This document shows, in pieces, positions 2,538 to 61,011 of a DNA stretch of 64,000 nt. The translations under genes were made by a program, and so were the position numbers. The stretch spans positions 55,384 to 119,383 of the forward strand of contig JANXNI010000061.1 in the NCBI GenBank assembly GCA_025354165.1. The letters run 5' to 3'. The notes beneath the pieces are model-generated. The model had not been told where the DNA came from and ran no database searches. It was given only the letters and a program-made list of their open reading frames with translations. Origin of the DNA: Burkholderiales bacterium (lineage in GTDB: Bacteria; Pseudomonadota; Gammaproteobacteria; Burkholderiales; Casimicrobiaceae). Numbering within the stretch: position 1 is the stretch's first letter; each line of letters opens with the position of its first letter.

Positions 2538-2653
2538 CAGCTTTTTCGTGAATGCCAGTCTAATCGGGGGCTAGACGTCGTATTTGCCGAAAGTCGATAA
2601 ATAGACAAATTAACAATGAACCCCAGTGCAGTGGTCGTTTGAAGTAAAAGCTA
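2538..2653. repeat. 116-bp symmetric intergenic element, copy 1 (rplY-pth)
   Basis: CAGCTTTTT 2538, GGGGCT 2567, TCGA 2594, AACCCC 2619-2624, TAAAAGCTA 2645-2653; boxes mirror exactly about 2595/2596. Confidence 0.9.
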
Positions 2654-2707
2654 TTAACCAGCGTTTACACTGTAAAGCAGTAATTTTTTGCCTTAGTTAG
2701 CGCTTCC

Positions 2708-3343
2708 GTGACTTTCCCAAAACTACCCATCAAACTCGTCGTCGGGCTCGGTAATCCAGGCCCGGAATATGAGCGCACACGGCACAACGCGGGATTCTGG
2801 CTGGCCGAGGATGTGGCGCATGAAATTGGCGGCAGTTTTGCGAGTGAGAAAAAATTTGACGGCCTGATGGCGCGAGGTCAAGGTGCTGCAAGTGAAGTGC
2901 GGGTTCTCAAGCCGCAAAAGTACATGAACCTCTCAGGCCAAAGCGTTGCAGCCATAGCGAATTTCTACGCCGTTGCCCCCGCAGAAATTCTCGTCGCGCA
3001 TGATGAACTTGACCTCGACGCCGGTGACATCAAATTCAAATTCGGTGGCGGCCACGCCGGGCACAACGGTCTGCGCGACATTCAGGCGAAGCTTGGAACG
3101 GGGGACTACTGGCGCTTGCGCATTGGTATTGGCCATCCGCGCGACTCGTTGAATTCGCAGCAGGCTGTCGCCGACTGGGTGTTGCAGCGGCCACGCCGAG
3201 ACGAACAGAACGCGATTGAAACGGCAATTGAGCGCGCACTCGCCGTCTGGAAATTTCTCGCCGTGGGCGATACGGAAAGCGCAGTGAAGAATTTGCACAC
3301 AAAACCCAGGATGGACCAACCATCCGACAAGGCCCGCGCATGA
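2708..3343 (+). CDS. pth: peptidyl-tRNA hydrolase
   Basis: VGLGNPG, TRHNAGF, HDELD, GHNGL and RLRIGIGHP motifs. Confidence 0.97.
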   Translation: MTFPKLPIKLVVGLGNPGPEYERTRHNAGFWLAEDVAHEIGGSFASEKKFDGLMARGQGAASEVRVLKPQKYMNLSGQSVAAIANFYAVAPAEILVAHDELDLDAGDIKFKFGGGHAGHNGLRDIQAKLGTGDYWRLRIGIGHPRDSLNSQQAVADWVLQRPRRDEQNAIETAIERALAVWKFLAVGDTESAVKNLHTKPRMDQPSDKARA

Positions 3344-3365
3344 ACCCTCTCACGAAGGACGCGCC

Positions 3366-5186
3366 GTGAGCGCCCTGTCCACCGCCGCCGCGCTACTCGG
3401 AGCGGCCGTGCTACTCGTCCCGCTGTTCAAACGGCTGGGGCTGGGCTCGGTCATGGGCTATCTCGTGGCGGGCGTGCTCATCGGGCCGTCTGCATTCGCG
3501 GTCATCCACGAGCCTGAAGCCGTGCTGCGAACCGCCGAATTTGGCGTGACGCTGCTCATGTTCATCATCGGCCTGGAGCTGCAAACGGAGCGCTTGTGGG
3601 CGTTGCGCAAATCCGTGTTCGGGCTCGGCAGCTTGCACATGCTCGCCTGCACCTTGGTGCTTGCCGCCCTCGCATGGTCGTTCAACATTCTGGGCGTTGC
3701 GGCGATCATCGTAGGCATCGCGTTGACCATGACGTCGACCGCGTTCGCGTTGCCGTTACTTGCGGAGCGCGGTGAAATCGATTCGCAGTATGGCCGCGAA
3801 ACGTTCTCAGTGCTGCTGTTTCAGGACTTGAGCGTCATCCCGATCATCGCATTGGTTGGTCTTGTTGGCGCGACGGCCGGTGGCGGGGTCAAACTCGGCT
3901 GGCCCGCGTTGATTGCAGTCGTCGCCGTAGTGATTCTGGGCCGACCGGTTTTGTCGGTCATGTTCAAGTACGCCTCAAAATTCGGCTCCCACGAAATCTT
4001 CACCGCTGCGGCGCTGCTCACCACCGTTGGTTTGGCGTGGCTCATGACGAGTGTAGGTTTGTCGACGACGCTTGGCGTTTTTTTGGCGGGCGTTTTGTTA
4101 GCTGACTCGCAGTTTCGGCATCAACTGGAAGCGAGCATTGAGCCCTTTGAATCACTGCTCCTCGGTTTGTTTTTCATGGCCGTGGGTATGAGTGTGAACC
4201 TTGATTTGCTCAAGCGCGCGCCGCTTGCGCTGGTCGGTCTGGCCGCAGCGATTTTGCTGCTGAAGGCGGGGACCTTCTATATCGTCCGACGTTTCATCAC
4301 GCGAGCTGCCGACAAGCTCGCGCGGCCACAGGCGCTCGCGCTCGCGGTGGGCGGCGAATTCGCATTCGTGCTGATCAATGCGGCCACCGATGCCAGCCTG
4401 ATTTCGCCGCAAGAAAATGAAGTGCTCACGGTCGTCGTCGTACTGACCATGGTGCTTGCGCCACTTGCGTGGATATTCAATGACAAAGTGCTGACGCCCT
4501 GGCTCACGAGCGATGAAGAACCTGCGCCGTTTGACCGTATCGACGATCCGGGGACGCCGGTCATCATCGCTGGTTTCGGCCGCGTCGGCCAGATCATAGG
4601 CCGCGTGCTCAACATGAGACGTGTCGCGTTCACCGCAGTGGATGCGAGCCCGGACAATGTTGATTCTGTTCGCCGTTTTGGTAACAAAATTTACTACGGC
4701 GACGCGACACATCTGGACCTCCTGCGCGCCGCAAAAACGGAGAGAGCGAAGCTGTTTGTCGTGTGTATCGATGATGTCGAAGCGTCACTCGTTACGGTCA
4801 AGCTCGTACAGAAACATTTTCCGTCGGTGACCGTGCTCGCTCGTGCCCGGAACCGCACGCACCTCATGAAACTGCGCGAACTTGGCGTGGAATCACCGAT
4901 CCGCGAAACGTTTGCTGGCAGCGTTGAATTGTCGAAACTGGTGCTCGAGGGGTTGGGCGAAACCAGTGAGCAAATTGAAAAAACGCTCACCACTTTTGTG
5001 GAACACGACTTGGCCATGCTGGAGCGGCAACAGGCGGTGTTTCAGGATGAAGCCAAACTCATCGCCCTGTCAAAAACAGCGCGCGCGGAGCTCGACACCA
5101 TCCTGCGCGAAGACGCCGAAGCCGACGGTCGCAGCGATCAGTTAGCACCTGAAATGCAAAACCAAATTGAGGCAGTACGAACATGA
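3366..5186 (+). CDS. kefC: KefB/KefC-family monovalent cation:proton antiporter with C-terminal KTN domain
   Basis: Multiple TM helices, LLFQDL, and IIAGFGRVGQ / YYGDAT KTN motifs; kefB vs kefC not resolved. Confidence 0.85.
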   Translation: MSALSTAAALLGAAVLLVPLFKRLGLGSVMGYLVAGVLIGPSAFAVIHEPEAVLRTAEFGVTLLMFIIGLELQTERLWALRKSVFGLGSLHMLACTLVLAALAWSFNILGVAAIIVGIALTMTSTAFALPLLAERGEIDSQYGRETFSVLLFQDLSVIPIIALVGLVGATAGGGVKLGWPALIAVVAVVILGRPVLSVMFKYASKFGSHEIFTAAALLTTVGLAWLMTSVGLSTTLGVFLAGVLLADSQFRHQLEASIEPFESLLLGLFFMAVGMSVNLDLLKRAPLALVGLAAAILLLKAGTFYIVRRFITRAADKLARPQALALAVGGEFAFVLINAATDASLISPQENEVLTVVVVLTMVLAPLAWIFNDKVLTPWLTSDEEPAPFDRIDDPGTPVIIAGFGRVGQIIGRVLNMRRVAFTAVDASPDNVDSVRRFGNKIYYGDATHLDLLRAAKTERAKLFVVCIDDVEASLVTVKLVQKHFPSVTVLARARNRTHLMKLRELGVESPIRETFAGSVELSKLVLEGLGETSEQIEKTLTTFVEHDLAMLERQQAVFQDEAKLIALSKTARAELDTILREDAEADGRSDQLAPEMQNQIEAVRT

Positions 5187-6172
5187 ACCGTTGCAAAATC
5201 GCTGTGATCGGCGTGACGCTTGTTGCGCTGTCCGGGTGCGCAACACGGTTCGACTTGCAGGCACATCGCGGCGGACGCGGGCTCGCGCCTGAGAACACGT
5301 TGACGTCGTTTTCAAACGCGCTCGACATCGGAGTCAGCACGCTAGAGCTGGACGTCGGCATTACGAAAGACGGAGTGATGGTGATCTCGCACGATCGCTA
5401 CATGAACGCGGACATCACACGCGACGCCCAGGGTGCGTTCCTCGCTGAACGTGGTCCAACCATTGCGTCGTTGACTTTGGCTGAGCTGCAACGCTACGAC
5501 GTGGGTCGTCAAAATCCTGCCAGCAATTACGCCAAATCCTTCCCGCAGCAAAAGGGGACCGATGGCGAGCGCGTTCCGACTTTAGCGTCGCTATTTGATC
5601 TCGTCGCCAAGCGCGGCGCGACCAATGTGCGCTTCAACGTTGAAACCAAAATCTCACCGAACGCCGCCTCGGAGACGCTTGCGCCCGAGCCCTTTGTGCG
5701 TGCGCTGATTGCGGAGATTCGTAAAGCCGGACTCACCAGTCGCGCGACGATTCAATCGTTCGACTGGAGAACTTTGCTGATTGCTCAGCGTGAAGCGCCG
5801 GAGATCGTGACTGTGCATCTGACCAGCCAGCAAGGCGCGGGTGACATGGTGCAGGTGGGCAGACCGGGTGCGTCGCCGTGGCTCGCGGGATTTGATGTTG
5901 ACGATTACGCGGGTTCGGTGCCGAAACTGGTGAAAGCGGCAGGCGGCACGGTGTGGTCGCCGAATTACAAGGACGTGACCGACGCGCTGGTGCGAGAGGC
6001 GCAGTCGCTTGGGCTGAAAATTGTGCCGTGGACGGTGAATGACGACGCTGATCTTGCGCGTTTGCTCGACTGGAAAGTTGATGGCCTGATCACCGATTAC
6101 CCGGATCGCTTGCGTGCGCTCATGAAGGCCCGGGGGACGCCGTTGCCGACGCAGTATCCGGTGGCTAAATAG
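5183..6172 (+). CDS. glycerophosphodiester phosphodiesterase, putative lipoprotein
   Basis: AHRGG, PENTL, ELD, IQSFD, WTVND and ITDYP motifs; LSGC lipobox. Confidence 0.92.
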   Translation: MNRCKIAVIGVTLVALSGCATRFDLQAHRGGRGLAPENTLTSFSNALDIGVSTLELDVGITKDGVMVISHDRYMNADITRDAQGAFLAERGPTIASLTLAELQRYDVGRQNPASNYAKSFPQQKGTDGERVPTLASLFDLVAKRGATNVRFNVETKISPNAASETLAPEPFVRALIAEIRKAGLTSRATIQSFDWRTLLIAQREAPEIVTVHLTSQQGAGDMVQVGRPGASPWLAGFDVDDYAGSVPKLVKAAGGTVWSPNYKDVTDALVREAQSLGLKIVPWTVNDDADLARLLDWKVDGLITDYPDRLRALMKARGTPLPTQYPVAK

Positions 6173-6181
6173 CGTTGAACT

Positions 6182-6203
6182 GTAGGAGCGGCGAAAGCCG
6201 CGA
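6182..6203 (+). repeat. single GTAG-type REP
   Basis: GTAGGAGCGGCGAAAGCCGCGA between convergent stops; the same 22-mer recurs at 42317, 42359, 44165, 44207 and 50824. Confidence 0.85.
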
Positions 6204-6207
6204 AGGT

Positions 6208-6657
6208 TTACTTCTTCATCCGCGCGCGAATCGCGGGCAACAACTTCTCGTCAATATCTTCTTCGCCCAGCGCATACGCAACAAATTTGTCGCCCTCATA
6301 CAAACTGAAGCTCGGATAGCCCTTGATCTTGCCGTCGGTTTCGTTCTTCACGCGCGGCCAAAGCCATTGCTGATCTGGCTTGAAATCGTCTGCTGCAAAT
6401 GGTCGCGCGAGGGTCGGTTTTTTGACGATCATGTAGCGCACTGCTTTGCCCTCCGGGCTCTTCAGAAACTTCGCTTCACCGCCTGAACCTACGACCGAGC
6501 CTTCCCACCACGTACACCAGCGGCAATCTTTCGCCGACCAGTAGACGACTGTGAGCGGCTCCCCAGCCGCCCACGCGGGACTTACGCCGCTAGCGAAAAG
6601 CGCTGCACCAAGAATCGCGATGAGGTGTTTCGCAGTGTGTTTCATACGCACGACCAA
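6208..6657 (-). CDS. exported protein with CxxC motif, thioredoxin-like fold likely
   Basis: Signal peptide; YWSAKDCRWC; GYPSF resembles the cis-Pro loop; start may be ATG 6645. Confidence 0.65.
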   Translation of the reverse strand: MVVRMKHTAKHLIAILGAALFASGVSPAWAAGEPLTVVYWSAKDCRWCTWWEGSVVGSGGEAKFLKSPEGKAVRYMIVKKPTLARPFAADDFKPDQQWLWPRVKNETDGKIKGYPSFSLYEGDKFVAYALGEEDIDEKLLPAIRARMKK

Positions 6658-6662
6658 TCCTA

Positions 6663-6917
6663 TTACGCCAACAATTTCTTCACGTAAGCAACGTAGGCCT
6701 TCATCGCGTCATCATTGCTCGCACCCTTTTTCGTCGCCCAAGCGTCAAACTTTGCGCGTCCGACCGGATCCATGATGCCGGGACGTCGCCCTGCGGCATC
6801 GCCCTCTGTGCCTTGTTTGTAGAGCGCATACAGCTCCAGTAGCGTCGCGTTATCCGGCTTTTCTTTCAGCGTTTTAACGTCGGCTTGTGCTTTCTCGAAA
6901 TCGTCTTTAGTCGCCAT
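6663..6917 (-). CDS. acyl-CoA-binding protein (ACBP)
   Basis: LLELYALYKQGTEGD and KFDAW motifs; 84 aa. Confidence 0.93.
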   Translation of the reverse strand: MATKDDFEKAQADVKTLKEKPDNATLLELYALYKQGTEGDAAGRRPGIMDPVGRAKFDAWATKKGASNDDAMKAYVAYVKKLLA

Positions 6918-11998: not shown

Positions 11999-14254
11999 GT
12001 GAAATCTCGCCATGGTAGTAGTTCTGTGTCGCCGCTGCTTGCCGCTGCTATCCATATCATCTGCGCGAACACCATTGCGTTCGCACACATCGCTCACGCA
12101 CAGACTCCAACGCCAACGCCAACTCCCGCAGCCACGCCGATAACGGGCGCCACGTCCGACGACAAAGAGGAAACGAAAGCGAAGACACCTCAAGTCATCG
12201 ACAAGGTTGAGATCAAGGGATCGCAATCGGACTATGACGAGCGCCGTGAGGACACCGCGACCAAGATCGTGGTGACCTCGGAAGAAATCCGCAAATTCGG
12301 CGACACGCAAATTCTCGACGTGATGAAACGATTGCCTGGCGTGACGGTGCAGAACAACGCCATTCGTCTGCGCGGCCTCGGCAGTGGTTATACGCAAATT
12401 CTCATTGACGGTGAGCGACCACCACCGGGTTTCTCGATTGACAACTTGTCGCCCGATCTAGTGGAGCGCATCGAAATCATTCGCGCCGCAACGGCGGAAT
12501 ACAGCACGCAAGCGGTGGCCGGCACGGTCAACATCGTGATGAGGAAAAAATTCAGCGTGTCAAAGCGCGACGTCAACGCCGGGTGGTACAGCGGAACGGG
12601 CTACACGTCGCAGCGTGTCGGATTCAGTATCGCGGACAAGGTCGATCAACTGGCATTTTCAGTGGGTGGATATGGTGGACGCGGCACGTTTGACTATGCC
12701 TCGATCGGCAGCACGATTGGCCTGGACCCGAACGGCCAGCGCGTGATGCAGCGGACTTCAAGTGTCGCTAGCTTCGGGGACAACCGGTATGCGGGGCTCT
12801 ACTCAACCCTCGCCTGGACCCTGGCGGGCGGTGACTCGTTCACCATGAACCCGTCGCTCAATTTCAGCCAATACAACTCGCAATTTCACTCACGCACTGA
12901 TTATCTGCTGGGCGACAGCACGATCTATCCGATTTCCGATGGCCGCAATCGCGGCAGTAACTGGAATGTCGGCAACAGCGCCAACTGGATTCTCAAGGGG
13001 CAGAGCGGCGCAAAATTGGACTTGAAGATAAGCGCAAGTGTCGGCGCACGCAACAGCGATTCCTTCAGTCATTCGTTTGACTATGACAACACGCCCACCC
13101 TTGCGCGCAGTACGCTCGGGCCGACGCGGGATAGTCGCGCCGCAATCGTCGGAAAATATGCCACCCCCATCGTCGAAGGGCATTCGTTACTCGCGGGGTG
13201 GGATATTGGATTCAATCGCAGCAACTCATCGCTTCGGGTGATCGAAACCAACGTCGCGGCCGATCCCATCGATACCCTCGAAGACTATGTAGCCAGCGTA
13301 CGAAAGTTCGCCTTGTTTGCTCAGGATGAATGGAGCGTCACGCCGAACTGGTCGGTGTATTTGGGTTTGCGCTGGGAGGGCATTGACACCACGAGTGATG
13401 GCACGGGCGTGGCCACTACGACCAATCGCTCAAGTGTTGTCAGTCCGCTGTTTCAGACCTTGTGGAAGTTCCCCGACAAATCCGGACGACAGTTTCGGCT
13501 GGCGCTGACGCGCACCTACAAAGCCCCCGAAACCTACAACCTGGTGCCGCGCATTTATCGAACGACGGTGAACACGTCAACTACGCCGGATTACCAGACC
13601 GGAAACAGTAGCCTGAAGCCTGAGCTCGCCACCGGCGTTGACATCGCGTACGAGCACTTCTTCGCAAAAGGTGCATCGATGAGCTTGAGCGGCAGTGTGC
13701 GGGCATTGACTGAGTACAACACGCGCGGCACCTTTTTGATCAATGATCGTTGGGTGAACAAGCCCATCAACAACGGCAACGCGACCTCACGCAGCATTGA
13801 GTTTGACGCCAAGTTTCCGCTGCAATCCATCTACGGCGGCGCTCCGCCGATTGACTTCCGCTTCAACATTGCGCGCAATTTTTCGCGCGTCGAAGAAGTA
13901 CCAGGCCCGAACAACCGTCTCGACCAGCAGGCTCCGCTGAGCGGCACCTTCGGTCTTGACTACCGCATGCGTGGCGGCATCGTGGTGGCCGGGGCGAGCT
14001 ACAGTTTTAAAGGCGGCGGTGACGTGCGGCTCGCGGTCAACCAGATCAACTATTCGGCAACGACGCGTGAGCTGGAAATGTATGTGCTCTACAAATACAC
14101 GCCGAAGCTGCAATTTCAACTCCGTCTGACCAACGTACTGCGCCGGGATCTGGTCACCGCGTCCACCTACTTCGATGACACCGGCAGCACCCGATCAAGC
14201 AGTATCCGCCCGACGCAAATGAATATCGGGGCCAACATGAAGCTGGAGTTTTAG
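11999..14254 (+). CDS. TonB-dependent outer-membrane receptor
   Basis: Signal peptide, plug motifs (LPGV, ILIDG, IEII), beta-barrel pattern, C-terminal Phe; Thr-Pro linker near the N-terminus. Confidence 0.93.
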   Translation: MKSRHGSSSVSPLLAAAIHIICANTIAFAHIAHAQTPTPTPTPAATPITGATSDDKEETKAKTPQVIDKVEIKGSQSDYDERREDTATKIVVTSEEIRKFGDTQILDVMKRLPGVTVQNNAIRLRGLGSGYTQILIDGERPPPGFSIDNLSPDLVERIEIIRAATAEYSTQAVAGTVNIVMRKKFSVSKRDVNAGWYSGTGYTSQRVGFSIADKVDQLAFSVGGYGGRGTFDYASIGSTIGLDPNGQRVMQRTSSVASFGDNRYAGLYSTLAWTLAGGDSFTMNPSLNFSQYNSQFHSRTDYLLGDSTIYPISDGRNRGSNWNVGNSANWILKGQSGAKLDLKISASVGARNSDSFSHSFDYDNTPTLARSTLGPTRDSRAAIVGKYATPIVEGHSLLAGWDIGFNRSNSSLRVIETNVAADPIDTLEDYVASVRKFALFAQDEWSVTPNWSVYLGLRWEGIDTTSDGTGVATTTNRSSVVSPLFQTLWKFPDKSGRQFRLALTRTYKAPETYNLVPRIYRTTVNTSTTPDYQTGNSSLKPELATGVDIAYEHFFAKGASMSLSGSVRALTEYNTRGTFLINDRWVNKPINNGNATSRSIEFDAKFPLQSIYGGAPPIDFRFNIARNFSRVEEVPGPNNRLDQQAPLSGTFGLDYRMRGGIVVAGASYSFKGGGDVRLAVNQINYSATTRELEMYVLYKYTPKLQFQLRLTNVLRRDLVTASTYFDDTGSTRSSSIRPTQMNIGANMKLEF

Positions 14255-14346
14255 CGACATTACGAAGGCGTGCGGAACGCATGATCTGAAAAATCGGTCC
14301 GCCCATTGGCTTAAACGGAACGCAGGTTAAAGGTAGAAGAGCGATA

Positions 14347-14462
14347 CAGCTTTTTGCTGCACATCATACTTTACCGGGGATAGGCGTCGTTTTTACTATT
14401 TATCGATAATTGTATTGTTTAAACGGCAGCCCTTATGCAGTGGGTATTGCAGCGATAAGCTG
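14347..14462. repeat. 116-bp symmetric intergenic element, copy 2 (TBDR-ppc)
   Basis: CAGCTTTTT 14347, GGGGAT 14376, TTATCGATAA with TCGA at 14403, AGCCCT 14428-14433, GATAAGCTG 14454-14462; same offsets as copy 1. Confidence 0.88.
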
Positions 14463-14538
14463 ATTCGCTTTTCACGCCAATAAATTTGCGCGGAAACGCG
14501 TAGCGTGCGGTAGTTCCGCAGTGCAGCATAATGCTTCG

Positions 14539-17271
14539 ATGGATGATAAAAATTCCCCCACCGAAGACAAAGACGCGCCGCTCAAATCGGACACGCGTCT
14601 GCTGGGCCGATTGCTGGGTGACGTCATTCGTGCGCAGCGCGGCGACGCCACGTTCGAGAAGGTGGAATCGATTCGTCAGGAGTCCGTGCGTTTCCATCGC
14701 GAGGGCGCCTCGCATCGCCTGCTCGACGCCACACTCACTGACTTAAGCGTTGAGGAAGCGCTTGATGTGGTGCGTGCCTTCACCTACTTTTCACACCTCG
14801 CGAATATCGCGGAAGATGTGCAGCAAAATCGCCGTCGTCGCCATCATAAAAAGCGTGGCTCCGCGCCGCAGCCGGGTTCGCTTGCCGCAGCGTTCGGTCA
14901 TCTGAAAGCCGCCAATATCAGCGGCAATGAGATCTGGCATTGTCTCGCCCGCGCGACTATCAGCCCCACGCTCACCGCGCATCCAACCGAGATCAAACGG
15001 CAGAGCACGCTCGACGCTGAGCGTGCGATTGCCAGGGCCTTGTCGCTCGACGAGGATGATCGCGAAGTTCATCTGCATCGAATGATTTTGCAGCTCTGGC
15101 AGACGGCGATGTTGCGTCTGACCAAGCTGCGCGTGCGCGACGAAATCGACAATGCGCTGAACTATTTCCGCGCGAGTTTTTTGTCGGAAGTGCCGCGTCT
15201 CACCGGCAACACTTTAGCCGCACTCGAGGCGCACGACGGAACGTTGGCGCAGCTTCCCGCGTTCCTGAAAATCGGCATGTGGATTGGCGGGGATCGCGAC
15301 GGCAACCCGTTCGTCAACGCCGACACACTCGACTACGTGATCGACACTCAGTCCGAGTTGGCGCTTTCGCATTACCTCGCCGAAGTGCACACGTTGGGCG
15401 CAGAGCTTGCGATGTCGAGCCGACTGGTCGAAGTTTCGCCCGCATTGAACGATCTCGCCGAGCGTGCAGGCGATGGGTCGCGCTTTCGTATCGATGAGCC
15501 GTATCGTCGCGCACTTTCGGGCATTTACAGCCGACTCGCTGCCACTTATCGTAGCGTGACGGGCGAAACGACGGCCCGCAAGCCGCACAACCCGGACGCG
15601 TCGCCGTACGTCACACCTGATGAGCTGTCCGACGATCTGGAGGTCATCGCCGAATCGCTTGCGCAACATGGTTCTGGCGTGATCGCCGATGCGCGCGTGA
15701 TGCCGCTCAAGCGCGCGGTGCAAACGTTTGGCTTTCACCTCGCGCCGGTCGATTTGCGGCAGAACTCGGCTGTGCATGAATCGGTCATCACCGAACTGCT
15801 CGCGGGTTGTGGACTGTGTGCCGACTACGCAGCGCTGAACGAAGGCGAAAAAGTCGCGCTGCTCAGCCGCGAGCTGGAAAGCGCAAGGCTTCTTGCGTCC
15901 CCGTACATGAAGCTTTCAGAGACCGCGCTGTCCGAACTCGCGATCTTTCGCAAAGCAGCTGAAGTGCATTCGCGGTTCGGTGCGGCAGCGCTGCCGCGCA
16001 TGATTATTTCGATGGGTGAATCGTTGTCAGATTTGCTCGAAGTGGCGACGCTGTGCAAAGAGGTCGGCCTCGCACGCGGCGGCGAAGTGCCGCATTTGGC
16101 GGTTGCCATCGTGCCGCTGTTCGAGACGATTGAGGATTTACAGAACGCACCTACTGTGATGTCCGCAGCCTTTGCCCATCCGCTCTATCGCCGCTGGATC
16201 AAGGCACAGAACGACGCGCAGGAAATCATGCTCGGCTACAGCGATAGCAACAAAGATGGCGGCTATTTCACTGCCAATTGGTCGCTGTATCGCGCGCAGC
16301 AAGCGCTCGTTTCAAGTTTTGCCAAACACGGAATCCGCCTCTGCCTGTTCCACGGTCGTGGCGGCAGCATCGGGCGCGGTGGTGGCCCAAGCTATGAGGC
16401 CATTCGCGCGCAACCCGCCGGCGCGGTCAATGGCTTTTTGCGATTGACCGAACAGGGCGAAATCATCTCCAGTAAATACGGCGACCCTGAGCTCGCGCAA
16501 CGCAATCTGGAGACGTTGTTGGCGGCGGTGCTGGAGAGCACGCTGTTGCCCAATATCTCGGGCGACTCCGCGCAGCAAGTTCGCTTTGAGGCGATTGCAG
16601 ATCGCTTGAGCGAGCACGCCTTCACCGCGTATCGCGCGCTGGTTTACGGGGACGATGGTTTCGTCACGTATTTCCGCGAAAGCACACCAATCAAAGAAAT
16701 CGCGGAACTCAATATTGGCTCGCGCCCCGCATCGCGAAAGGCCAGCACTCGCATCGAAGATTTGCGGGCGATTCCGTGGGTGTTTAGCTGGGCGCAAGCG
16801 CGCGTATCGCTGCCCGGTTGGTATGGGTTTGGGAGCGCAATCGCCAAGTTGATTGAAGAAGCACCCGCAGTGATGGACGAGCTGCGCCAGATGGCGAAAG
16901 ACTGGCCGTTCTTCGCCACCGTCCTCTCAAACCTTGGAATGGTCCTGGCCAAGACGGACATGCAAATCGCCGCTGCCTACGGCTCGCTGGTGCTAGACCG
17001 TACGATTCGCGAACGCGTCGGCGGGCAGATTCATGCCGAATGGGAGCGCACAAAAAATGCGTACGAATCGATTGTGGGCGCGGCACCGCTGGCCGACAAC
17101 CCAACGCTTGCGCGCTCGATTCGTAACCGCTTTCCGTATCTCGATCCATTGAATCATTTACAAATCGAACTCATTCGCCGCGTGCGCTCAGGCGACGTGG
17201 AGGAGCGCACGCGGCGGGCATTGCACCTGACGATTAACGGGTTGGCGGCGGGACTTCGGAACACGGGGTAA
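14539..17271 (+). CDS. ppc: phosphoenolpyruvate carboxylase
   Basis: LTAHPTE, WIGGDRDGNP, MLGYSDSNKDGG, FHGRGGSIGRGGGP and LRAIPWVFSW motifs; alternative start GTG 14521. Confidence 0.97.
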   Translation: MDDKNSPTEDKDAPLKSDTRLLGRLLGDVIRAQRGDATFEKVESIRQESVRFHREGASHRLLDATLTDLSVEEALDVVRAFTYFSHLANIAEDVQQNRRRRHHKKRGSAPQPGSLAAAFGHLKAANISGNEIWHCLARATISPTLTAHPTEIKRQSTLDAERAIARALSLDEDDREVHLHRMILQLWQTAMLRLTKLRVRDEIDNALNYFRASFLSEVPRLTGNTLAALEAHDGTLAQLPAFLKIGMWIGGDRDGNPFVNADTLDYVIDTQSELALSHYLAEVHTLGAELAMSSRLVEVSPALNDLAERAGDGSRFRIDEPYRRALSGIYSRLAATYRSVTGETTARKPHNPDASPYVTPDELSDDLEVIAESLAQHGSGVIADARVMPLKRAVQTFGFHLAPVDLRQNSAVHESVITELLAGCGLCADYAALNEGEKVALLSRELESARLLASPYMKLSETALSELAIFRKAAEVHSRFGAAALPRMIISMGESLSDLLEVATLCKEVGLARGGEVPHLAVAIVPLFETIEDLQNAPTVMSAAFAHPLYRRWIKAQNDAQEIMLGYSDSNKDGGYFTANWSLYRAQQALVSSFAKHGIRLCLFHGRGGSIGRGGGPSYEAIRAQPAGAVNGFLRLTEQGEIISSKYGDPELAQRNLETLLAAVLESTLLPNISGDSAQQVRFEAIADRLSEHAFTAYRALVYGDDGFVTYFRESTPIKEIAELNIGSRPASRKASTRIEDLRAIPWVFSWAQARVSLPGWYGFGSAIAKLIEEAPAVMDELRQMAKDWPFFATVLSNLGMVLAKTDMQIAAAYGSLVLDRTIRERVGGQIHAEWERTKNAYESIVGAAPLADNPTLARSIRNRFPYLDPLNHLQIELIRRVRSGDVEERTRRALHLTINGLAAGLRNTG

Positions 17272-18345: not shown

Positions 18346-18806
18346 CGCTGTCGGTGTCCGTGCAATTTGCTTCGGTGGCGAAACATTTGCCACAGCGCGC
18401 TCAAGTGCGCCGCTGGGCGCTCGCGGCGCATCGTGAGGCTGATACAGACGGTGAAGTCACTATTCGCTACGTCGACGAGAAAGAAGGGCGCACACTACAT
18501 CGGGATTTTCGCGGCAAGGATTACGCGACCAATGTGTTGACGTTTGTGCACGAACCGTCGCCGTTTCAGCCGAAAGCGGCGCGAAATTACGCTGCCGATA
18601 TCGTCATCTGCGCACCTGTCATCGCCCGTGAAGCGCGCGAGCAGAAGAAGCCGCTCGCGGCACATCACGGTCATATGGTTTTGCACGGCATGCTGCACGC
18701 GCAAGGCTTTGATCATGAAGTCGAAGCAGAAGCCAACGCGATGGAGGCTATTGAGATTGCACTGTTACGCCGATTTCGTATAAAAAACCCCTATGAAATT
18801 GAATGA
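18342..18806 (+). CDS. ybeY: rRNA maturation endoribonuclease YbeY
   Basis: FRGKDYATNVLTF and HGMLHAQGFDH metal motif. Confidence 0.95.
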   Translation: MTLSVSVQFASVAKHLPQRAQVRRWALAAHREADTDGEVTIRYVDEKEGRTLHRDFRGKDYATNVLTFVHEPSPFQPKAARNYAADIVICAPVIAREAREQKKPLAAHHGHMVLHGMLHAQGFDHEVEAEANAMEAIEIALLRRFRIKNPYEIE

Positions 18807-18817: not shown

Positions 18818-18933
18818 CAGCTTTTCGCTCCAAACGCCTCTACATAGGGGCTATCTGTGATTAACGCAGAAAGTCGGCTTATTACGAATTCGCCTGGTAT
18901 CCCAAATAGGCGCGTCGTTTTGCGAAAAAGCTA
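18818..18933. repeat. 116-bp symmetric intergenic element, copy 3 (ybeY-corC)
   Basis: CAGCTTTTC 18818, GGGGCT 18847, AAGTCGGCTT centre (18874), ATCCCA 18899-18904, AAAAAGCTA 18925-18933. Confidence 0.88.
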
Positions 18934-35722: not shown

Positions 35723-35837
35723 CAGCTTTTTCTTGTAATGACGTATTCATAGGGGCTAGGCGCAAATTAACCCAATAGTCGATAAAGTGAAATTATTCGA
35801 ATAAGCCCCGATGCAGCAGTCGTTTCAATAAAAAGCT
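35723..35837. repeat. 116-bp symmetric intergenic element, copy 4 (115 bp; radC-isochorismatase)
   Basis: CAGCTTTTT 35723, GGGGCT 35752, TCGA 35779, AGCCCC 35804-35809, TAAAAGCTG 35829-35837; 1 nt shorter in the last spacer. Confidence 0.9.
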
Positions 35838-35844
35838 GATAGTG

Positions 35845-45424: not shown

Positions 45425-46453
45425 ATGAAGAAAACCCTACTCAAAATTAGTACCACCGCCCTCGCCGCAGGTGCCCTCGCCGCGCCTGCGTTCGCCCAAC
45501 AAGTCAACGCCTTCTGCTCTACCAATCAGGCCTGGTGCGAAATGGCGGCGACCGAATTCACCAAGTCGACCGGCATCAAAGTCGTGCAAACGCATCTGGG
45601 CACGGGCGAGGCACTCGTGCGCCTGAAAGCAGAAGCGGCCAATCCAAAAACCGATATCTGGTGGGGCGGCACCGGTGACCCGTTTCTCGCGGCGTCTGAA
45701 GAAAAACTACTCGATGCCTATCGCCCCGCCTACACCAAGGATTTGTACGACTGGAGCGTGCGCCAGTACGACATGAGCGGCAACATGGTTGGCGCGTTCT
45801 ACACGAGTTTTATCGGCATGGGCTGGAACGAAGAAACGCTCTCGAAAAAGAAACTCGCCGCACCGAAATGCTGGGCTGATCTGACCGATCCGAAATATAA
45901 AGGCGAGATCGAAATGGCGCATCCCGGCTCGTCGGGCGGCGCGTACACGATCGTCGCGGGACTCATTCAGTTGATGGGCGAGGACGCCGCTTTTGAATAC
46001 ATGAAAAAGCTGCACAAGAACATCACGAGCTATACGAAAAGCTCGCAAGCACAGGCGAAAAACGTCGCGCGCGGTGAAGCGGGTATCGGCATCTCCTTCC
46101 TGTTCGGTTTTGAAGAAGAGCGTCAGGCTGGATTCAAATCCGTGCGCTCGGCGGCGCCGTGTGAAGGCACTGCGTACGAACTCGGCGGCATCGCGCTCAT
46201 CAAGGGTTCACGCAACGGCGAAAACGCTAAAAAATATTACGACTGGCTCATGAGCCCGGTCGGTCAGGGCATCGGCGCCAAGGCCAATTCGCTGCAAAAC
46301 CCCGCCAACAAAACGTTCAAGCAGGACGCAAAAATCCCGGCGATGGACGGCGTAAAACTCATCAATTACGACTTCAAGAAATACGGCGCATCCGCAGAGC
46401 GCAAGCGCATTCTTGAAAAGTGGGAAAGGGAAATTAACTCGCTGCCACGCTAG
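45425..46453 (+). CDS. ABC substrate-binding protein, paralog of the preceding gene
   Basis: Signal peptide; NPKTDIWWGG, HPGSSGGAYT and PCEGTAY motifs; similar C-terminus. Confidence 0.9.
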   Translation: MKKTLLKISTTALAAGALAAPAFAQQVNAFCSTNQAWCEMAATEFTKSTGIKVVQTHLGTGEALVRLKAEAANPKTDIWWGGTGDPFLAASEEKLLDAYRPAYTKDLYDWSVRQYDMSGNMVGAFYTSFIGMGWNEETLSKKKLAAPKCWADLTDPKYKGEIEMAHPGSSGGAYTIVAGLIQLMGEDAAFEYMKKLHKNITSYTKSSQAQAKNVARGEAGIGISFLFGFEEERQAGFKSVRSAAPCEGTAYELGGIALIKGSRNGENAKKYYDWLMSPVGQGIGAKANSLQNPANKTFKQDAKIPAMDGVKLINYDFKKYGASAERKRILEKWEREINSLPR

Positions 46454-46488: not shown

Positions 46489-46604
46489 CAGCTTTCTCGT
46501 AAAAGCAAGGACGCACAGGGGCTAATTGCGTAAAACGTGCGGAGTCGACTTATGGCCGATTACGTCTCTGGCCCCTATGAAACCGTGCTTTCAGCATAAA
46601 GTCA
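46489..46604. repeat. 116-bp symmetric intergenic element, copy 5 (between convergent genes)
   Basis: CAGCTTTCT 46489, GGGGCT 46518, AGTCGACT centre with TCGA at 46545, GGCCCC 46570-46575, ATAAAGTCA 46596-46604 (right end degenerate). Confidence 0.82.
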
Positions 46605-52964: not shown

Positions 52965-54122
<1,158 letters not shown>

Positions 54123-55884: not shown

Positions 55885-55946
55885 CGATTCGGTTAAGCGA
55901 AGATACTTGACACAAAGCAAGCACTATCAAAAATTCAGGAGCCGCT

Positions 55947-56906
55947 ATGCGATATCTCGTTTCAGCCGTTTTCGCGGTGTTGGCTAGCGCCCCGCTATTG
56001 GCGCAGAACTATCCCGTGAAACCCGTAAGGATCATCGTCCCGTTCGCCACCGGTGGACCCGCAGACGTTTACGCGCGAACCGTTGCGCAGCGTCTCTCGG
56101 AGTCGCTCGGGCAAGCGTTCATCGTTGACAACCGTCCTGGAGCTGGTGCGGTGGTCGGCACCGACGTAGCCGCGAAGTCGGCGCCTGACGGCTACACATT
56201 GCTTATGATGTCGAACGCTCAAACCGTCAACGAAACGCTCATTCCGAACAAGCCGTACGCGCTGCTCCGAGACTTTGCGCCGATTGCGCCCGTCAACTAC
56301 TCCGACCTCGTGTTGGTCGCGCATCCGAGCGTCGCGGCCAACAATTTGCGCGAACTAATCGCGCTGGCGAAAGCAAGCCCAAAGCCAATGACCTTCGCAT
56401 CTAGCGGCCCCGGCACGCCGTATCACATGGCAGGCGAGCTCTTCAAATCGATGGCTGGAATTGACTTGCTGCATGTCCCATACAAAGGCAGCAGTGGTGC
56501 GCGTACCGATGTCGTTGCGGGTCACGTGAATATGATGTTCGACGCAATCACCACCATGAGTGCGCAGGTCAAAACAGGCAAGGTCAAAGCGATTGCCACT
56601 TCCGGAAGAACACGCTCCGCAGTGATGCCAGAAGTACCTACGCTTAATGAATCCGGCGTGCCGGGCTACGACGCCGTGATCTGGCTCGGCATCATGGCAC
56701 CGATCAACACCCCACGCGCCATCGTCAACAAACTCAATGCCGAAATCACCAAAGCCGTAGACCGCGCCGATGTCAAAGCTGAATGGGCGAAGCAGGGAGC
56801 AACCCCGATGCAAATGTCGCCGGACGCATTCGCCAAATACGTGCGTGAAGATATCGATAAATGGGCGCAAGTGGTCAAAGTTTCTGGCGCGAAATTTGAG
56901 GAATGA
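55947..56906 (+). CDS. tripartite tricarboxylate transporter substrate-binding protein (Bug/TctC)
   Basis: YPVKPVRIIVPFATGG, DNRPGAG, APDGYT and HVPYKG motifs. Confidence 0.95.
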   Translation: MRYLVSAVFAVLASAPLLAQNYPVKPVRIIVPFATGGPADVYARTVAQRLSESLGQAFIVDNRPGAGAVVGTDVAAKSAPDGYTLLMMSNAQTVNETLIPNKPYALLRDFAPIAPVNYSDLVLVAHPSVAANNLRELIALAKASPKPMTFASSGPGTPYHMAGELFKSMAGIDLLHVPYKGSSGARTDVVAGHVNMMFDAITTMSAQVKTGKVKAIATSGRTRSAVMPEVPTLNESGVPGYDAVIWLGIMAPINTPRAIVNKLNAEITKAVDRADVKAEWAKQGATPMQMSPDAFAKYVREDIDKWAQVVKVSGAKFEE

Positions 56907-56912
56907 GCGAAC

Positions 56913-57599
56913 ATGAACATTCTGAGTGCCGGTGCCGCCAAAGGGCTTTTGTACGCAATCGCCGAACGCGAATCGATCGCGTTGACGGGTGAATTCGGCG
57001 CAGTCGGCGCGATCTATGAACGATTGAAATCAGGCGCGACTTCCGATGTAGTCGTCCTTACGGCGGCGATGATTGCAGAGCTGGCTGCTAGAGATGAAGT
57101 GGACGCCTCAAGCGTGATCGCTTTGGGCGAAGTGCATACAGGCATTGCGCTTTTGAACGATGCGCCACTTATAAACGTCGACGACGTCGAGACGTTGAAG
57201 CAACTGCTCTCGAAAGCAAAAAAACTGTACTTCCCCGACCCGGCGCGCGCCACCGCTGGCATTCACTGCATGAAGATGCTCACAGCGTTGGGACTCGCAG
57301 AATCGCACCGCGAGCGCTTTGCGACCTATCCGAATGGCGCAACTGCAATGCGCGCGATGGCAGATTCTGGCGATATTGGCGCGGTGGGAATAACCCAGTG
57401 CTCGGAGATTCTGTATACCTATGGCGTGCGGTACGCGGGACCGTTACCGGGCCCGTTTCAGCTTGCCACGGTCTATTCAGCGGCGATGACGCAGCGCGTT
57501 GAGAATGTCGCCGAGGCGGTGAAATTGTTGAATGCGTTGTCGTCCTCGACCACCGAGCCAGCACGCCTTTCGGCGGGCTTCAAGCCGCTTGCTTCGTGA
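56913..57599 (+). CDS. ModA-like periplasmic substrate-binding protein
   Basis: ILSAGA start, PDPARATAGIH and TQCSEI motifs. Confidence 0.75.
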   Translation: MNILSAGAAKGLLYAIAERESIALTGEFGAVGAIYERLKSGATSDVVVLTAAMIAELAARDEVDASSVIALGEVHTGIALLNDAPLINVDDVETLKQLLSKAKKLYFPDPARATAGIHCMKMLTALGLAESHRERFATYPNGATAMRAMADSGDIGAVGITQCSEILYTYGVRYAGPLPGPFQLATVYSAAMTQRVENVAEAVKLLNALSSSTTEPARLSAGFKPLAS

Positions 57600-57625
57600 C
57601 GGCGCTGACGGCGATAAAGTGCAAG

Positions 57626-57702
57626 TGGTAGGCCGTAAAGGACTTGAACCTTTGACCAAAGGATTATGAGTCCTCTGCTCTAACCAACTGAGCTAACGGC
57701 CC
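57626..57702 (-). tRNA. tRNA with CAT anticodon, most likely tRNA-Ile2 (lysidine type)
   Basis: Reverse complement GGGCCGTTAGCTCAGTTGGTTAGAGCAGAGGACTCATAATCCTTTGGTCAAAGGTTCAAGTCCTTTACGGCCTACCA; typical position after rpoD. Confidence 0.92.
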
Positions 57703-57733
57703 ACTTGTACTGCTTCGACTTTGCAGAATGTAC

Positions 57734-57755
57734 AAACGGGCCCGCGAGCCCGTTT
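57734..57755 (-). terminator. hairpin between rpoD and the tRNA
   Basis: AAACGGGC-CCGCGA-GCCCGTTT; short U tail on the minus strand. Confidence 0.5.
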
Positions 57756-57800
57756 TATTCGTGCAGCCGCTAGTTTAGCGGCTTACGTTACCGAGGCTGA

Positions 57801-60680
57801 CTAAGCCTCGGTAACGAAACCTTTCAAACGCTCAGCACGGCTTGGGTGACGCAGCTTACGCAGCGCTTTCGCTTCGATCTGACGAATACGCTCGCGCGTT
57901 ACGTCGAACTGCTTGCCCACTTCTTCCAGCGTGTGGTCGGTGTTCATCTCGATGCCGAAGCGCATGCGTAGCACTTTAGCTTCGCGCGGCGTCAGGGTGT
58001 CGAGCACTTCCTTGCACAGGTCGCGCAGGCTGTCCTGCACGGCGGCGTCCATCGGTGTCAGCGTGTTGGTGTCTTCGATGAAATCGCCCAGATGGCTGTC
58101 ATCGTCGTCACCAATCGGCGTTTCCATGGAAATCGGCTCTTTGCTGATCTTCATGATGCGGCGGATTTTGTCTTCCGGAATTTCCATGCGCAGTGCGAGC
58201 GTTGGCGCGTCTGGCTCGATACCCGTTTCCTGCAGGATTTGCCGCGAAATGCGGTTCATCTTGTTGATCGTTTCGATCATGTGCACCGGGATACGGATTG
58301 TGCGCGCCTGATCAGCGATTGAACGCGTGATGGCCTGACGGATCCACCACGTGGCGTACGTCGAGAATTTGAAGCCGCGACGGAATTCAAATTTGTCGAC
58401 CGCTTTCATGAGACCGATGTTGCCCTCCTGAATCAGGTCGAGGAACTGCAAACCGCGGTTCGTGTATTTCTTGGCAATCGAGATCACGAGGCGCAAGTTG
58501 GCCTCGGTCATTTCTTTTTTCGCCTTACGCGACTTGGCTTCACCCGACGACATCTGTTTGTAGATGTCTTTGAAATCTTGCAGCGGCAGATTTACTTTTT
58601 TCTGGTGATCCAGAAGCGCTTCCTGACGCTCAACCAATGCCTGACGATTTTTCGCCATGACTTCGCTGTATGGCTTGCCGAGCGCGATTTCCTTGTCGAT
58701 CCAGGTCAGATCAAGCACACGCTCCGGAAAGGTTTTGAGGAAATGATCGCGCGGCATGTGGCACTTAAACACCAGCATTTCCTGCAACTTGCGCTCATGG
58801 CCACGAATGCGCTCGACTTCCGAGCGCACGGAGTCACAGAGCTGTTCGACGATCTTCGCGGCGAAGCGAATGTCCATCATCTCTTCGGTGATCTTTTTCT
58901 GGGCCTTGACGTAGCCTTCGCTCTTGTACTCACCTTTTTCGATGTGTACGAGGAGCTTCGCGTGGTTCTTGCGAATGATGGCAAACTTCTCAAGCGACAT
59001 GGCTTTGAGTTTGGCGAGGAGTTCAGCCGAAATAGCAGCGGTGGCTTCTTCGTCTTCTTCCTCTTCTTCGGCCTCTTCCTCGTCGCCCTCAGCATCATCA
59101 GCGACGACTGCCGCAGGTGCAGGCGCAGGTGGCTCAAGTCCTGCCAAACCGTCAACGATATCGTCAACGATAGCTTCGCCTTTTTCAATCTTGTCGGCGA
59201 GCAGAAGGATTTCGGTAATCGTCATCGGGCACGCGGAAATCGCGGTGACCATGTGCTTTAAACCGTCCTCGATGCGCTTGGCGATTTCGATTTCGCCTTC
59301 GCGCGTCAAGAGTTCAACGGTGCCCATTTCGCGCATGTACATGCGAACCGGGTCGGTCGTGCGGCCGAACTCACTGTCGAGCTGGGAGATGGCCTGTTCG
59401 GCCTCTTCGGCGACGTCATCGTCCGCCACCGCAGAGGCGGTTTCCGAAATGATCAATTCTTCGGCGGCGGGCGCTTCATCGAACACCTGAATGCCCATGT
59501 CGTTAATCATCGCGACGATGGACTCGATGGCCTCGGCATCAACCAGATCATCCGGCAAGTGGTCGTTAATCTCGGAATAGGTCAGATAGCCGCGATCTTT
59601 GCCGAGCGTGATCAGCGTTTTCAGGCGCAGACGACGGGTTTCGGCATCAACCGTTTTGAACGGTGCGAGCGCTTCGAGCAAGGCCTGTTGCTTCTTCTCA
59701 AGCAACAGTTGTTTGCGCGTTTTTGGCTTGCCGGTCAACGGGTTAATGGCGATGGCTGTTGGTGCGGCGGCGACTGCATCAGCGCCGGTTGCGTCGGCGT
59801 CTGTGGCGACTGGCGCTGCGGCAACCGCATTTTTAGGGGGACGACCGGGCTTGCCGGTTTTAACGGGAAGCGGCGCGGCGACTGCGAGGCTCGCGGCGGC
59901 AGCAGTTGCAGCAGCAGCGGCAGATTTAGCGGATACGGGTTTTGCAGGACTTTTTGCAGCGGTAGCTGCCGATGGGAGTACGGGGGCGGGTGACGCGGGA
60001 ATGGCGACACGTTTTGCTTGCTTCTCGATGGGAATCTTCTTTATTGATGTCTTGACGACCGGGGTTTCCGGAATCACCGAGGCCTTAACGGTCGGCTTGG
60101 TCGTTGCTTTTACTGGAGGCTTGGCGACCGCTTTTGCGACCACCTTCGGAATGGATTTGGCGACAGTGACAGCCGCCTTAGGCGAGGCCTTAGCGACGAC
60201 TTTGGCGACTACTTTCGCTTTGGCAGGCACGGGCTTGGCTACCACTTTGGCTGACGGCTTGGCCGTTTGCCTAGCTACAGTTTTGACTGCTGGCTTGGCA
60301 ACAGGTTTCGCGCTTTTTGCTTTCGGCACCGGTTTTGCGACAGGCTTTGCTGCCGGTTTCGCGATCGCCCTGGTTGTCGTCGACTTCTTGCTGACGGGCT
60401 TGGTCACCTTAACCGCTGATTTGGCGGCGGGCTTTGCTTTACTCACGGGTTTGGCCTTGACTGCCACTGCTTTTGCCGACTTCGGTGCGGGTTTGACCAC
60501 TTTGGCCTTCGCCGCCGTTTTCGAGACTGGCTTTGCTGGCTTCTTCACCGAGGTGACCGTGCGCGCCTTTGCCGCCGGCTTGGCGACAGGCTTCGCTTTG
60601 GCCGTTTTGCTGACGGCGCTTTTCGAGCCTTTGATGGCTTTCGCAACTTTAGTGGCGGGTTTAGATTTGGCTTTGACCAT
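57801..60680 (-). CDS. rpoD: primary sigma factor RpoD with a long Lys/Ala/Pro-rich N-terminal extension
   Basis: Region 1.1 ([13 protein letters not shown]), [37 protein letters not shown] and [20 protein letters not shown] motifs. Confidence 0.97.
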
Positions 60681-60895
60681 GATTCAAATTTCCAATGCAC
60701 AACGGGCAAACAAGCCCGGCAAGAGAGGCGGCAAATGAACGCAACTTCGCGTCAGTCGGTTGCAAGCCAATGGTCGAGTATTCATCCATCGTCATGCGAC
60801 TAACTGGTAAGCTAGGTGAGGGTAACCCTCGATTTTACCAGCGAGTCTCTTAGAAGAGCTGCTTTTTAAATCGAGCGAAATGTCGGAACGGGTAG

Positions 60896-61011
60896 CAGCT
60901 TTTTGTAAAAAAGACGCCTGTATAAGGGCTGAAGACAATAAACGGTATAAGTCGATAAGTAGCGAAATCGCCCATTAGCCCAAATGCCGCTGGACTTTTC
61001 TGAAAAAGCTG
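60896..61011. repeat. 116-bp symmetric intergenic element, copy 6 (between divergent rpoD and RND genes)
   Basis: CAGCTTTTT 60896, AGGGCT 60925, TCGA 60952, AGCCCA 60977-60982, AAAAAGCTG 61003-61011. Confidence 0.9.

Follow-up and report, generated by a model that had tools for sequence, protein, structure and literature searches.

The REP/BIME elements of enterobacteria, which bind gyrase, IHF and Pol I (background in PMC2817692), are 20-40-nt imperfect, hairpin-forming palindromes set in variable mosaics. REPINs are REP doublets of about 100 bp, kept alongside a domesticated Y1 transposase, RAYT. Their two inverted arms form one long hairpin, and RAYT is encoded by a gene flanked by its own REPs. 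The Correia elements of Neisseria and the ERIC/IRU elements measure 100-150 bp, lie between genes, have inverted ends and bind protein in their middle part (IHF in Correia). Miniature inverted-repeat transposable elements (MITEs) are marked by target-site duplications and inverted ends that pair, fall into subfamilies and often show both filled and empty sites. Here we describe a dyad-symmetric intergenic element of 116 bp, found in six copies in a window of 64,000 nt (the whole stretch of DNA analysed, positions 55384-119383 of contig C35) from an uncultured, Casimicrobium-like Burkholderiales metagenome-assembled genome (MAG) of 4.72 Mb, 97 contigs and 57.7% G+C, called G000 below. The element represents a new family of dispersed intergenic repeat, nearest in kind to the REP/BIME and REPIN elements, which fails the tests for both of these and for MITEs as well.

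With REP/BIME elements the family shares hundreds of intergenic copies, about one per 10 kb and mostly past the 3' ends of transcription units; both are thought to be protein-binding sites, and both are hot spots for specific insertion sequences (ISs). The difference is that the present element is a single rigid 116-bp unit. The likeness to REPINs lies in the size, the two inverted arms, a species-specific consensus, long vertical inheritance at orthologous positions and the presence of RAYT-like genes in the genus, but the arms of the element do not co-vary, G000 has a RAYT pseudogene only, and no RAYT gene that we examined is flanked by elements. Correia and ERIC/IRU elements are similar in length, intergenic location, inverted ends and a central region for protein binding, while of the MITE features listed above the element shows none.

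The sequence-only reading of the window had described a family of six members. The six segments lie where that reading placed them and align without gaps (156 columns, 25 of them invariant), and six is exact for the window, but it greatly understates the family. An nhmmer profile built from the six window copies gave 907 matches over the two strands of G000, which correspond to 460 loci (434 at E<=1e-3), and a full profile rebuilt from 347 copies finds about 455 loci at E<=1e-3, or approximately 1.1% of the genome, with exactly six in the window and 12 on contig C35. The further copies for which a profile scan had been proposed are thus there, and are mostly intergenic. Length is nearly constant: of 372 full-length matches, 328 measure 116 bp, 31 measure 117 bp, seven 118 bp and five 115 bp. 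A pattern of 24 box bases, allowing three mismatches or fewer, matches 328 sites in G000, while the reversed pattern matches none in all 151 genomes searched, so that the conserved boxes stand far above chance. The consensus has no blastn match at E<=0.01 in 5,426 Escherichia coli genomes, which carry ERIC, REP/BIME, BoxC and RSA, and none in 72,556 plasmids; together with the Rfam searches described below, this bears out the earlier impression that the family matches no described repeat among those compared.

Read against its reverse complement, the consensus (CAGCTTTTtgcTGAAAgCaCcacTgcATaGGGGCTAaagGCgaATTttgccaAAAGTCGACTttTGgcaAAATtgggcttTAGCCCCtATGCAgtgGTcgTTTCAgcaAAAAGCTG) agrees at 108 of the 116 positions, and across the 347 copies the information is concentrated in a few boxes, with the remaining positions nearly random. 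The boxes are conveniently seen in copy 4 of the window (35723-35838; E=9.5e-23, 82 bits), which is the top-scoring copy there and is flanked by two minus-strand genes. The terminal boxes occupy element positions 1-8 and 109-116 (CAGCTTTT at 35723-35730 and its mirror AAAAGCTG at 35831-35838), and positions 1-7 are conserved in 82-99% of the copies. The A box, with consensus TGAAAcgACCac, occupies positions 12-23 (mirror 94-105; 35734-35745 and 35816-35827 in copy 4) and is followed by TGCAT at positions 24-28 and by the B box, GGGGCTA, at positions 30-36 (mirror 81-87; 35752-35758, with the mirror TAGCCCC at 35803-35809), in which positions 31-33 are G in 94-96% of copies. The centre, AAAGTCGACTTT, spans positions 53-64 and contains an octamer at 55-62 with consensus AGTCGACT, which in copy 4 reads AGTCGATA (35777-35784). 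At positions 45-47 and 70-72 the base is A or T, about equally often, in runs of AAA or TTT; the choice of run is independent between the two arms, which points to readout of shape. Two extra A/T bases on each side lengthen the palindrome to about 120 bp. The suggestion that A/T tracts recur at helical intervals does not survive measurement, as the tracts at 45-47, 54-56, 61-63 and 70-72 are only 8-9 bp apart.

In spite of this nearly perfect symmetry, the two arms of individual copies are not paired with each other. No covariation occurs at any of the 58 pairs of positions (i, 117-i) in the 347 G000 copies, where Watson-Crick combinations are as frequent as the column frequencies predict; even inside the boxes, the pair 34/83 is complementary in a fraction 0.67 of copies versus 0.65 expected. 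Mutual information between the arms is at most 0.04, and appreciable values are confined to adjacent positions. A scan of every possible local palindrome centre gave no excess of pairing within an arm, and 47 copies of a variant from a congener (G093; see below) likewise show no covariation. The spacers had been described as mostly unpaired within a copy, and this holds statistically. A palindromic consensus without compensatory change indicates a symmetry of the motif and not of the molecule, basically an array of double-stranded DNA motifs as opposed to a hairpin, and independent arms are what would be expected if a two-fold symmetric protein recognised each duplex arm.

These data bear directly on an RNA role, in which the element would be a structured 3' untranslated region, a small RNA or a bidirectional terminator whose U-tail derives from the terminal CAGCUUUUU. 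Copies do lie near stop codons, both strands begin with CAGCTTTTT, and some single-strand folds reach z-scores near -4. The folds of the six window copies are nevertheless weak for 116 nt (-10 to -19.5 kcal/mol, z from -0.1 to -4.1) and pair the palindromic boxes alone, there is no covariation at any scale, and 71 copies lie in divergent spacers. Rfam at its gathering threshold reports two tRNAs and nothing else in the whole window, and a permissive Rfam scan of copy 4 returns nothing at E<=1. (The two tRNA genes lie at 558-629 on the plus strand and 57629-57702 on the minus strand.) An intrinsic terminator was rejected as well: genome-wide, the flank together with the terminal CAGC has a minimum free energy of -7.15 kcal/mol versus -6.76 in shuffled sequences, the CAGC is paired less often than in the shuffles, and copy 1 is preceded by a separate, canonical intrinsic terminator of its own (2491-2520, plus strand; 13-bp stem and T-run), the order being stop codon, terminator, element. 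An RNA role is therefore largely refuted, and we regard it as highly improbable. The earlier exclusions of an RNA hairpin and of a promoter both stand, and the terminator scan and the folding of flanks extend them to terminators.

Conservation at orthologous loci was examined in about 100 loci of relatives, fetched by the box pattern, whose genes are 75-88% identical to those of G000. In all 60 comparisons with both flanks collinear, the orthologous spacer of G000 carries the element. The reciprocal test finds it at 58 loci and missing at four (three distinct loci), so that about 5% of sites differ between species and the check for presence at orthologous sites is answered by 60/60 and 58/62 filled. 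No clean empty site was found, the three variable loci having non-homologous spacers. Identity between orthologous copies follows information content closely (correlation 0.94): it falls from 0.96 above 1.5 bits to 0.83 between 1.0 and 1.5 bits, 0.65 between 0.5 and 1.0 bits, and 0.41-0.46 at free positions, where non-orthologous pairs give a baseline of 0.31-0.37. The 116-bp register is maintained across orthologous copies. Free positions are thus nearly saturated while the boxes and their spacing are held, which indicates purifying selection at each locus. Position-specific conservation without pairing, kept at orthologous loci, is what would be expected of a protein-bound cis-element of double-stranded DNA, and is what was found.

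The family is narrowly distributed. An exact-pattern scan of named genomes recovers only Burkholderiales MAGs from glacier-fed streams and lakes, some of them labelled Casimicrobium sp., and within the GTDB family the pattern matches are limited to one of 12 genera, with 0-328 matches per species. Species without pattern matches are not necessarily empty, since the spacer orthologous to that of copy 3 is 140-213 bp long in eight of them; overall, 18 of 20 congeners have the element, or their lineage's version of it, in this spacer, which is only 16 and 2 bp long in the two small genomes that are most distant.

The box that varies between lineages is the B box. In the congeners G093 and G084 (the labels G008, G012, G014, G019, G020, G022, G084, G093 and G141 all denote congener genomes), the AGCTTTT termini and the GTCGAC centre are kept, and the A-box core AACGACC is common to the G000 element and the G093 variant, while the B box is replaced by GGCGGTCGTT in the left arm and by the complementary sequence in the right arm, this being an inverted copy of the A box AACGACCGCC. 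G093 has 49 variant copies in 552 kb, approximately one per 11 kb, without subfamilies, and at least three, probably four, of the five resolvable cases lie in the same orthologous spacers as G000 copies. A third type of B box, GGGCTT or GGGCAT, is found in G008, G022 and G141, and in more distant congeners the centre differs too. A concerted change of boxes at hundreds of fixed loci leaves two options, namely co-evolution with a binding protein or replacement by a mobile mechanism.

The placement of copies with respect to genes and to each other is also far from random; the figures on gene context rest on a crude, home-made caller based on codon usage. Of 434 copies, 370 overlap no gene. Tandem, convergent and divergent spacers contain 212, 119 and 71 copies, respectively, which amounts to 8%, 23% and 14% of all spacers of each type, and an element is present in half of those convergent spacers that reach 120 bp. 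The typical (median) copy is 26 bp from a stop codon and 105 bp from a start codon. The independence from gene orientation that had been supposed is therefore not seen: copies hug stop codons and are enriched in convergent spacers.

The six window copies occur in each of these contexts. Copy 1 (2538-2653; profile match 2538-2652, E=4.7e-21) is in a tandem context, 60 bp past the stop of a gene ending at 2477. Copy 2 (14347-14462, E=9.9e-16) lies between a gene ending at 14254 and one starting at 14521, and copy 3 (18818-18933; match 18818-18932, E=4.7e-17) begins 12 bp past a stop codon at 18806. Copy 5 (46489-46604; match 46489-46601, corresponding to model positions 1-113, E=1.8e-19) occupies a convergent spacer between genes ending at 46453 and 46660, and its right terminus is degenerate (AAAGTCA). 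Copy 6 (60896-61011, E=1.2e-17) occupies a divergent spacer, with genes starting at 60680 (minus strand) and 60984 (plus strand).

Copies keep apart from each other and are evenly spaced. On G000 contigs the distance between neighbours has a mean of 9.5 kb and a median of 8.3 kb, about seven genes, with a coefficient of variation (CV) of 0.66, whereas the CV is 0.95+-0.05 when copies are placed at random in eligible spacers of matching type and minimum length. Distances under 2 kb make up just 2.2% (14-15+-1.8% expected) and those under 3 kb 6.7% (24-25+-2% expected). The variant copies of G093 are similar in this respect: its 219-kb contig C5 has 19 elements, with 18 gaps of 5.2-26.5 kb and a CV of about 0.48 by hand calculation.

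Signs of recent mobility are essentially lacking. Target-site duplications are absent, in that no copy has equal flanking 4-9-mers over seven word lengths and seven boundary offsets, and equal flanking 2-mers occur in 19% of copies versus approximately 16% expected from the A/T-rich flanks. The mean pairwise identity among copies, 0.526, equals that of a column-shuffled control, which means that there are no subfamilies. The sole cluster of similar copies (79-91% identical) lies 3' of segmentally duplicated peptidase genes (an operon of a subtilisin-like peptidase and a partner gene, at C24:46029-51812, C32:252-3088 and C10:46736 of G000); recent transposition was ruled out as its source, the downstream element having been duplicated along with the operon. 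Few copies in G000 are degenerate, no solo element ends enclose a gene or transposase there, and no parent IS has the element's termini, the only associated IS (see below) having unrelated 26-bp inverted repeats. That the element is not a young MITE is accordingly confirmed: target-site duplications, subfamilies, recent copies and a transposase with these ends are all absent.

Membership in the REP/REPIN-RAYT class was tried and rejected on three tests, namely a hairpin, an intact RAYT in G000 and a RAYT flanked by the repeats. RAYT-like Y1 transposase homologues are present in 19 of 21 congeners and absent from both element-free genomes. The single PF01797 match in G000 (C58, approximately 14268-14981) is a RAYT-like (COG1943-type) Y1 pseudogene with a frameshift from a 17-bp duplication and a premature TAA, and the nearest element is 6.6 kb away. 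It sits inside a cluster of three type IV pilin paralogues (C58:11167-14135). Intact RAYT genes of the congeners G012, G014, G020 and G093 are not flanked by elements: in G014 and G020 there is none within about 1.3 kb (G020 having been scanned with the G000 and G093 profiles only), the three G093 loci have none adjacent, and that of G012 has one element 116 bp downstream. Where the element is absent, convergent spacers of relatives orthologous to that at G000 C30:1494 (loci L094, approximately 3520-3620, and L026) hold a different, hairpin-forming repeat, GGTTCCACC...GGTGGAACC, and this short repeat may be the true partner of the RAYT genes of the genus.

A past mobility is a different matter. 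The family probably began as a mobile REPIN/MITE-like repeat that was then retained, and the lineage-specific, concerted change of boxes points to such a history, which the earlier reading had discounted. In its strongest form, this explanation makes the present copies mere relics of a non-autonomous REPIN/MITE-like element that spread in the ancestor of the genus, with boxes that are former transposase sites and a spacing that reflects target immunity. The layout of the boxes does resemble multi-site transposon ends, the lineage-specific consensus amounts to concerted evolution, the arms of the G093 variant are 21-bp REP-like palindromes, RAYT-like genes and elements are missing from the same two genomes, and presence/absence polymorphism is rare but real. 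However, neutral decay would be even along the element, yet the boxes are 96% identical while free positions are near saturation; boxes are conserved in G000 even though its RAYT is an unflanked pseudogene, and the RAYT genes of the four congeners are unflanked as well. The scarcity of degenerate copies, the want of target-site duplications, subfamilies, young copies and solo ends enclosing a gene, and the fact that no hairpin is selected, all argue in the same direction. We consider the relic explanation unlikely.

The centre of the element stands out in two further respects, of which the first is that an IS inserts there. About 22 of 53 partial matches stop within a few bases of the element centre. 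Nine such centre-ending matches and two degenerate ones abut a 1,041-bp IS that has 26-bp perfect inverted repeats (CCTGATTAGCAAGCTGTCTCAGGAAG) and one open reading frame with DDE_Tnp_IS1595 and Zn_ribbon_IS1595 domains. All 12 IS ends found, from at least six copies, join element position 62, and the element centre is the exclusive target of this IS1595-family IS in G000. The complete copy is at C96:145145-146185, and its flanks imply an 8-bp duplication of element positions 55-62 (AGTCGAYW), a length of target duplication typical of the IS1595 family. Other ends are on contigs C5, C7, C15, C17 and C34 and on C8, C21, C68, C77 and C78, most copies of the IS breaking the assembly into contig ends, and a diverged relative of the IS is at C9:287-1248. 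Elements hold 23% of the genomic WRTCGAYW sites but 47 of the 50 AAGTCGACTT sites of G000, so a target preference of 10-12 bp would suffice to account for the specificity of the IS. ISs that target repeats are known elsewhere (IS1397 and ISKpn1 target BIMEs, and IS621 and other IS110-family members target REPs), and the likeness is insertion solely at one fixed point of a host repeat family; the difference is that the IS here belongs to the IS1595 family and duplicates the central palindromic 8 bp. To our knowledge, repeat targeting by the IS1595 family has no earlier report.

Some 13 other half copies run directly into unique genes, which suggests breakage or recombination at the centre. Their interpretation as the ends of genomic islands was rejected, as the sequence past the centre consists mostly of unique genes. 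Two half copies on contig C81 (40288-40347 and 80243-80303) lie 40 kb apart and are oriented as the parts of a split element, as though an island had entered at the centre, but without a matching 8-bp duplication. Another half copy, at C72:223582 onward, is adjoined by a second short dispersed repeat (...AAAACGACGTCA...), relatives of which are on contigs C38, C39, C96 (two), C55 and C37.

Breaks at the centre are also what would be expected if the element were a strong site of DNA gyrase or topoisomerase IV, cleaved with a 4-bp stagger at the central TCGA and wrapped along its arms so that positive supercoils are removed where transcription units end, a role proposed for BIME-2 of E. coli. 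The dimensions are suggestive, as a dyad-symmetric element of about 120 bp has a 4-bp core at its middle; copies are concentrated in convergent spacers and close to 3' ends, their regular spacing of about 10 kb resembles the size of supercoil domains, and the 13 or so half copies are cut exactly at the centre. The half copies are equally explicable by IS-mediated rearrangements, however, and conservation of the outer boxes extends to single bases (95-99%), whereas known gyrase motifs have periodic flanks that are read by shape. The core of the E. coli gyrase site is GRYC, which the central TCGA does not fit, and the boxes change between congeners while gyrase is highly conserved. A gyrase or topoisomerase IV site thus appears improbable.

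The second property of the centre is methylation, for which the evidence comes from a relative. In the single-molecule real-time (SMRT) methylome of Casimicrobium huifangae SJ-1, AGTCGACT is an N6-methyladenine (6mA) motif, modified at position 6 in 329 of 332 sites and with no enzyme assigned (PMC13515534). This motif corresponds exactly to element positions 55-62, and its methylation in SJ-1 implies that at least one congener has an enzyme that recognises this sequence in the double-stranded centre. The octamer outnumbers its reversed control by 114 to 42 in G000, 203 to 12 in G022, 161 to 38 in G008 and 140 to 25 in G084; it is enriched only in species whose element has a GTCGAC centre, and in neither distant nor element-free ones. 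Element centres make up 89 of the 114 sites in G000 and 15 of the first 20 in G008, the latter a closed genome of 4,465,898 bp in which two published motif counts are within 2-3% of those of SJ-1, a strain with which it may be identical.

A comparable case is HIP1 of cyanobacteria (GCGATCGC, PMC5861425), likewise a palindromic octamer that is methylated, occurs in excess throughout the chromosome and is under selection. HIP1 differs in being a free-standing 8-mer that also occurs within genes, whereas AGTCGACT forms the middle of an intergenic module of 116 bp with other boxes. One could nevertheless suppose that the element exists to present a methylatable AGTCGACT, for instance as a sensor of hemimethylation once replication has passed, or a self-mark linked to restriction-modification, with the other boxes positioning a methylation-sensitive reader. 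Full methylation of the motif in SJ-1 fits this, as does the fact that one of 256 possible palindromic octamers has 75-78% of its genomic sites at element centres. On the other side, just 89 of the approximately 455 G000 elements have the perfect octamer, most having variants such as AATCGACT or AGTCGATA, and the elements of distant congeners have another centre without octamer enrichment. Nor does a conserved methyltransferase track the element clade among the beta-class, TaqI_C and D12 classes across the congeners. Methyltransferase genes noted in G000 are a beta-class N6/N4 gene (C8:108248-109249), shared with G019 only; a D12-like gene (C74:2706-4043), covered by the family-level search only, which together with an adjacent fragment of another methyltransferase occupies C74:2417-4043; and a Type I HsdM gene (C35:15115-16650). 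None of these follows the element clade. An epigenetic or restriction-modification-linked site is, on balance, quite improbable.

The best-supported reading is that the element is a selectively maintained binding module of double-stranded DNA for a symmetric protein that may have a part in structuring the chromosome; we judge the chances of this reading to be about even. The family would then be a genus-wide, vertically inherited cis-element that is read as duplex DNA, an array of 116-120 bp with boxes (CAGCTTTT, TGAAAcgACC, TGCAT and GGGGCTA) at fixed distances around AGTCGACT and with A/T tracts between them whose orientation is free. A two-fold symmetric protein assembly would contact each arm independently and might bend or wrap about 11 helical turns of DNA. 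Purifying selection at the level of the host would preserve the boxes and their exact spacing, leaving the rest of the sequence to drift, and copies would be kept just past the ends of transcription units and mutually distant, at about one per seven genes or 9.5 kb. Given this placement and spacing, a chromosome-structuring or topological role fits better than a gene-specific one, with a domain barrier or an entry point for topoisomerase or condensin as candidates. Methylation of the central adenine, known from at least one congener, may make binding respond to methylation state or to replication.

Several points weigh against the binding-module reading. No cognate binding protein was found, which qualifies the original proposal of a double-stranded DNA site even as the selection on boxes and length, the regular spacing and the methylation of the centre in a congener favour it. 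The B box differs between lineages at orthologous loci, which is hard to reconcile with conservation in place and suggests copy replacement or mobile spread, and the regular spacing could be left over from target immunity during transposition. Two congeners with small genomes lack the repeat, as do 11 other genera of the GTDB family, so its function cannot be essential. The evidence for methylation comes from another species, and with the enzyme unassigned and three methyltransferase classes off the clade, the methylation could belong to a strain-specific restriction-modification system. The genome itself is a MAG in 97 contigs, with genes called by a crude home-made caller.

A bolder version, which we put forward as possible though somewhat doubtful, is a new chromosome-organising system. 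Its approximately 450 rigid, 116-bp nucleoprotein sites, spaced about 9.5 kb apart where transcription units end, would each carry a two-fold symmetric complex, its specificity co-evolving with the sites across the genus, and would act as domain boundaries or loading points for topoisomerase or condensin, with a methylated octamer coupling occupancy to replication.

Since the discovery of REP/BIME elements it has been debated whether the dispersed repeats of bacteria are junk, parasites or chromosome architecture. In REP/BIME elements hairpin, mobility and function are hard to separate, whereas in the present family they are separable. Insertion of an IS1595-family IS at the centre only is a new example of repeat-targeted transposition, and the lineage variants of the boxes at fixed loci amount to a natural experiment on how a protein may co-evolve with hundreds of sites. 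The system can be tested in C. huifangae SJ-1, the cultured type species, which is transformable and has a published methylome (PMC13515534), and in which the centre of the element is already a published 6mA motif. With no hairpin selected and no movement, and yet selection on boxes, length and positions together with even spacing, the family offers a clean case for a host function at the level of DNA.

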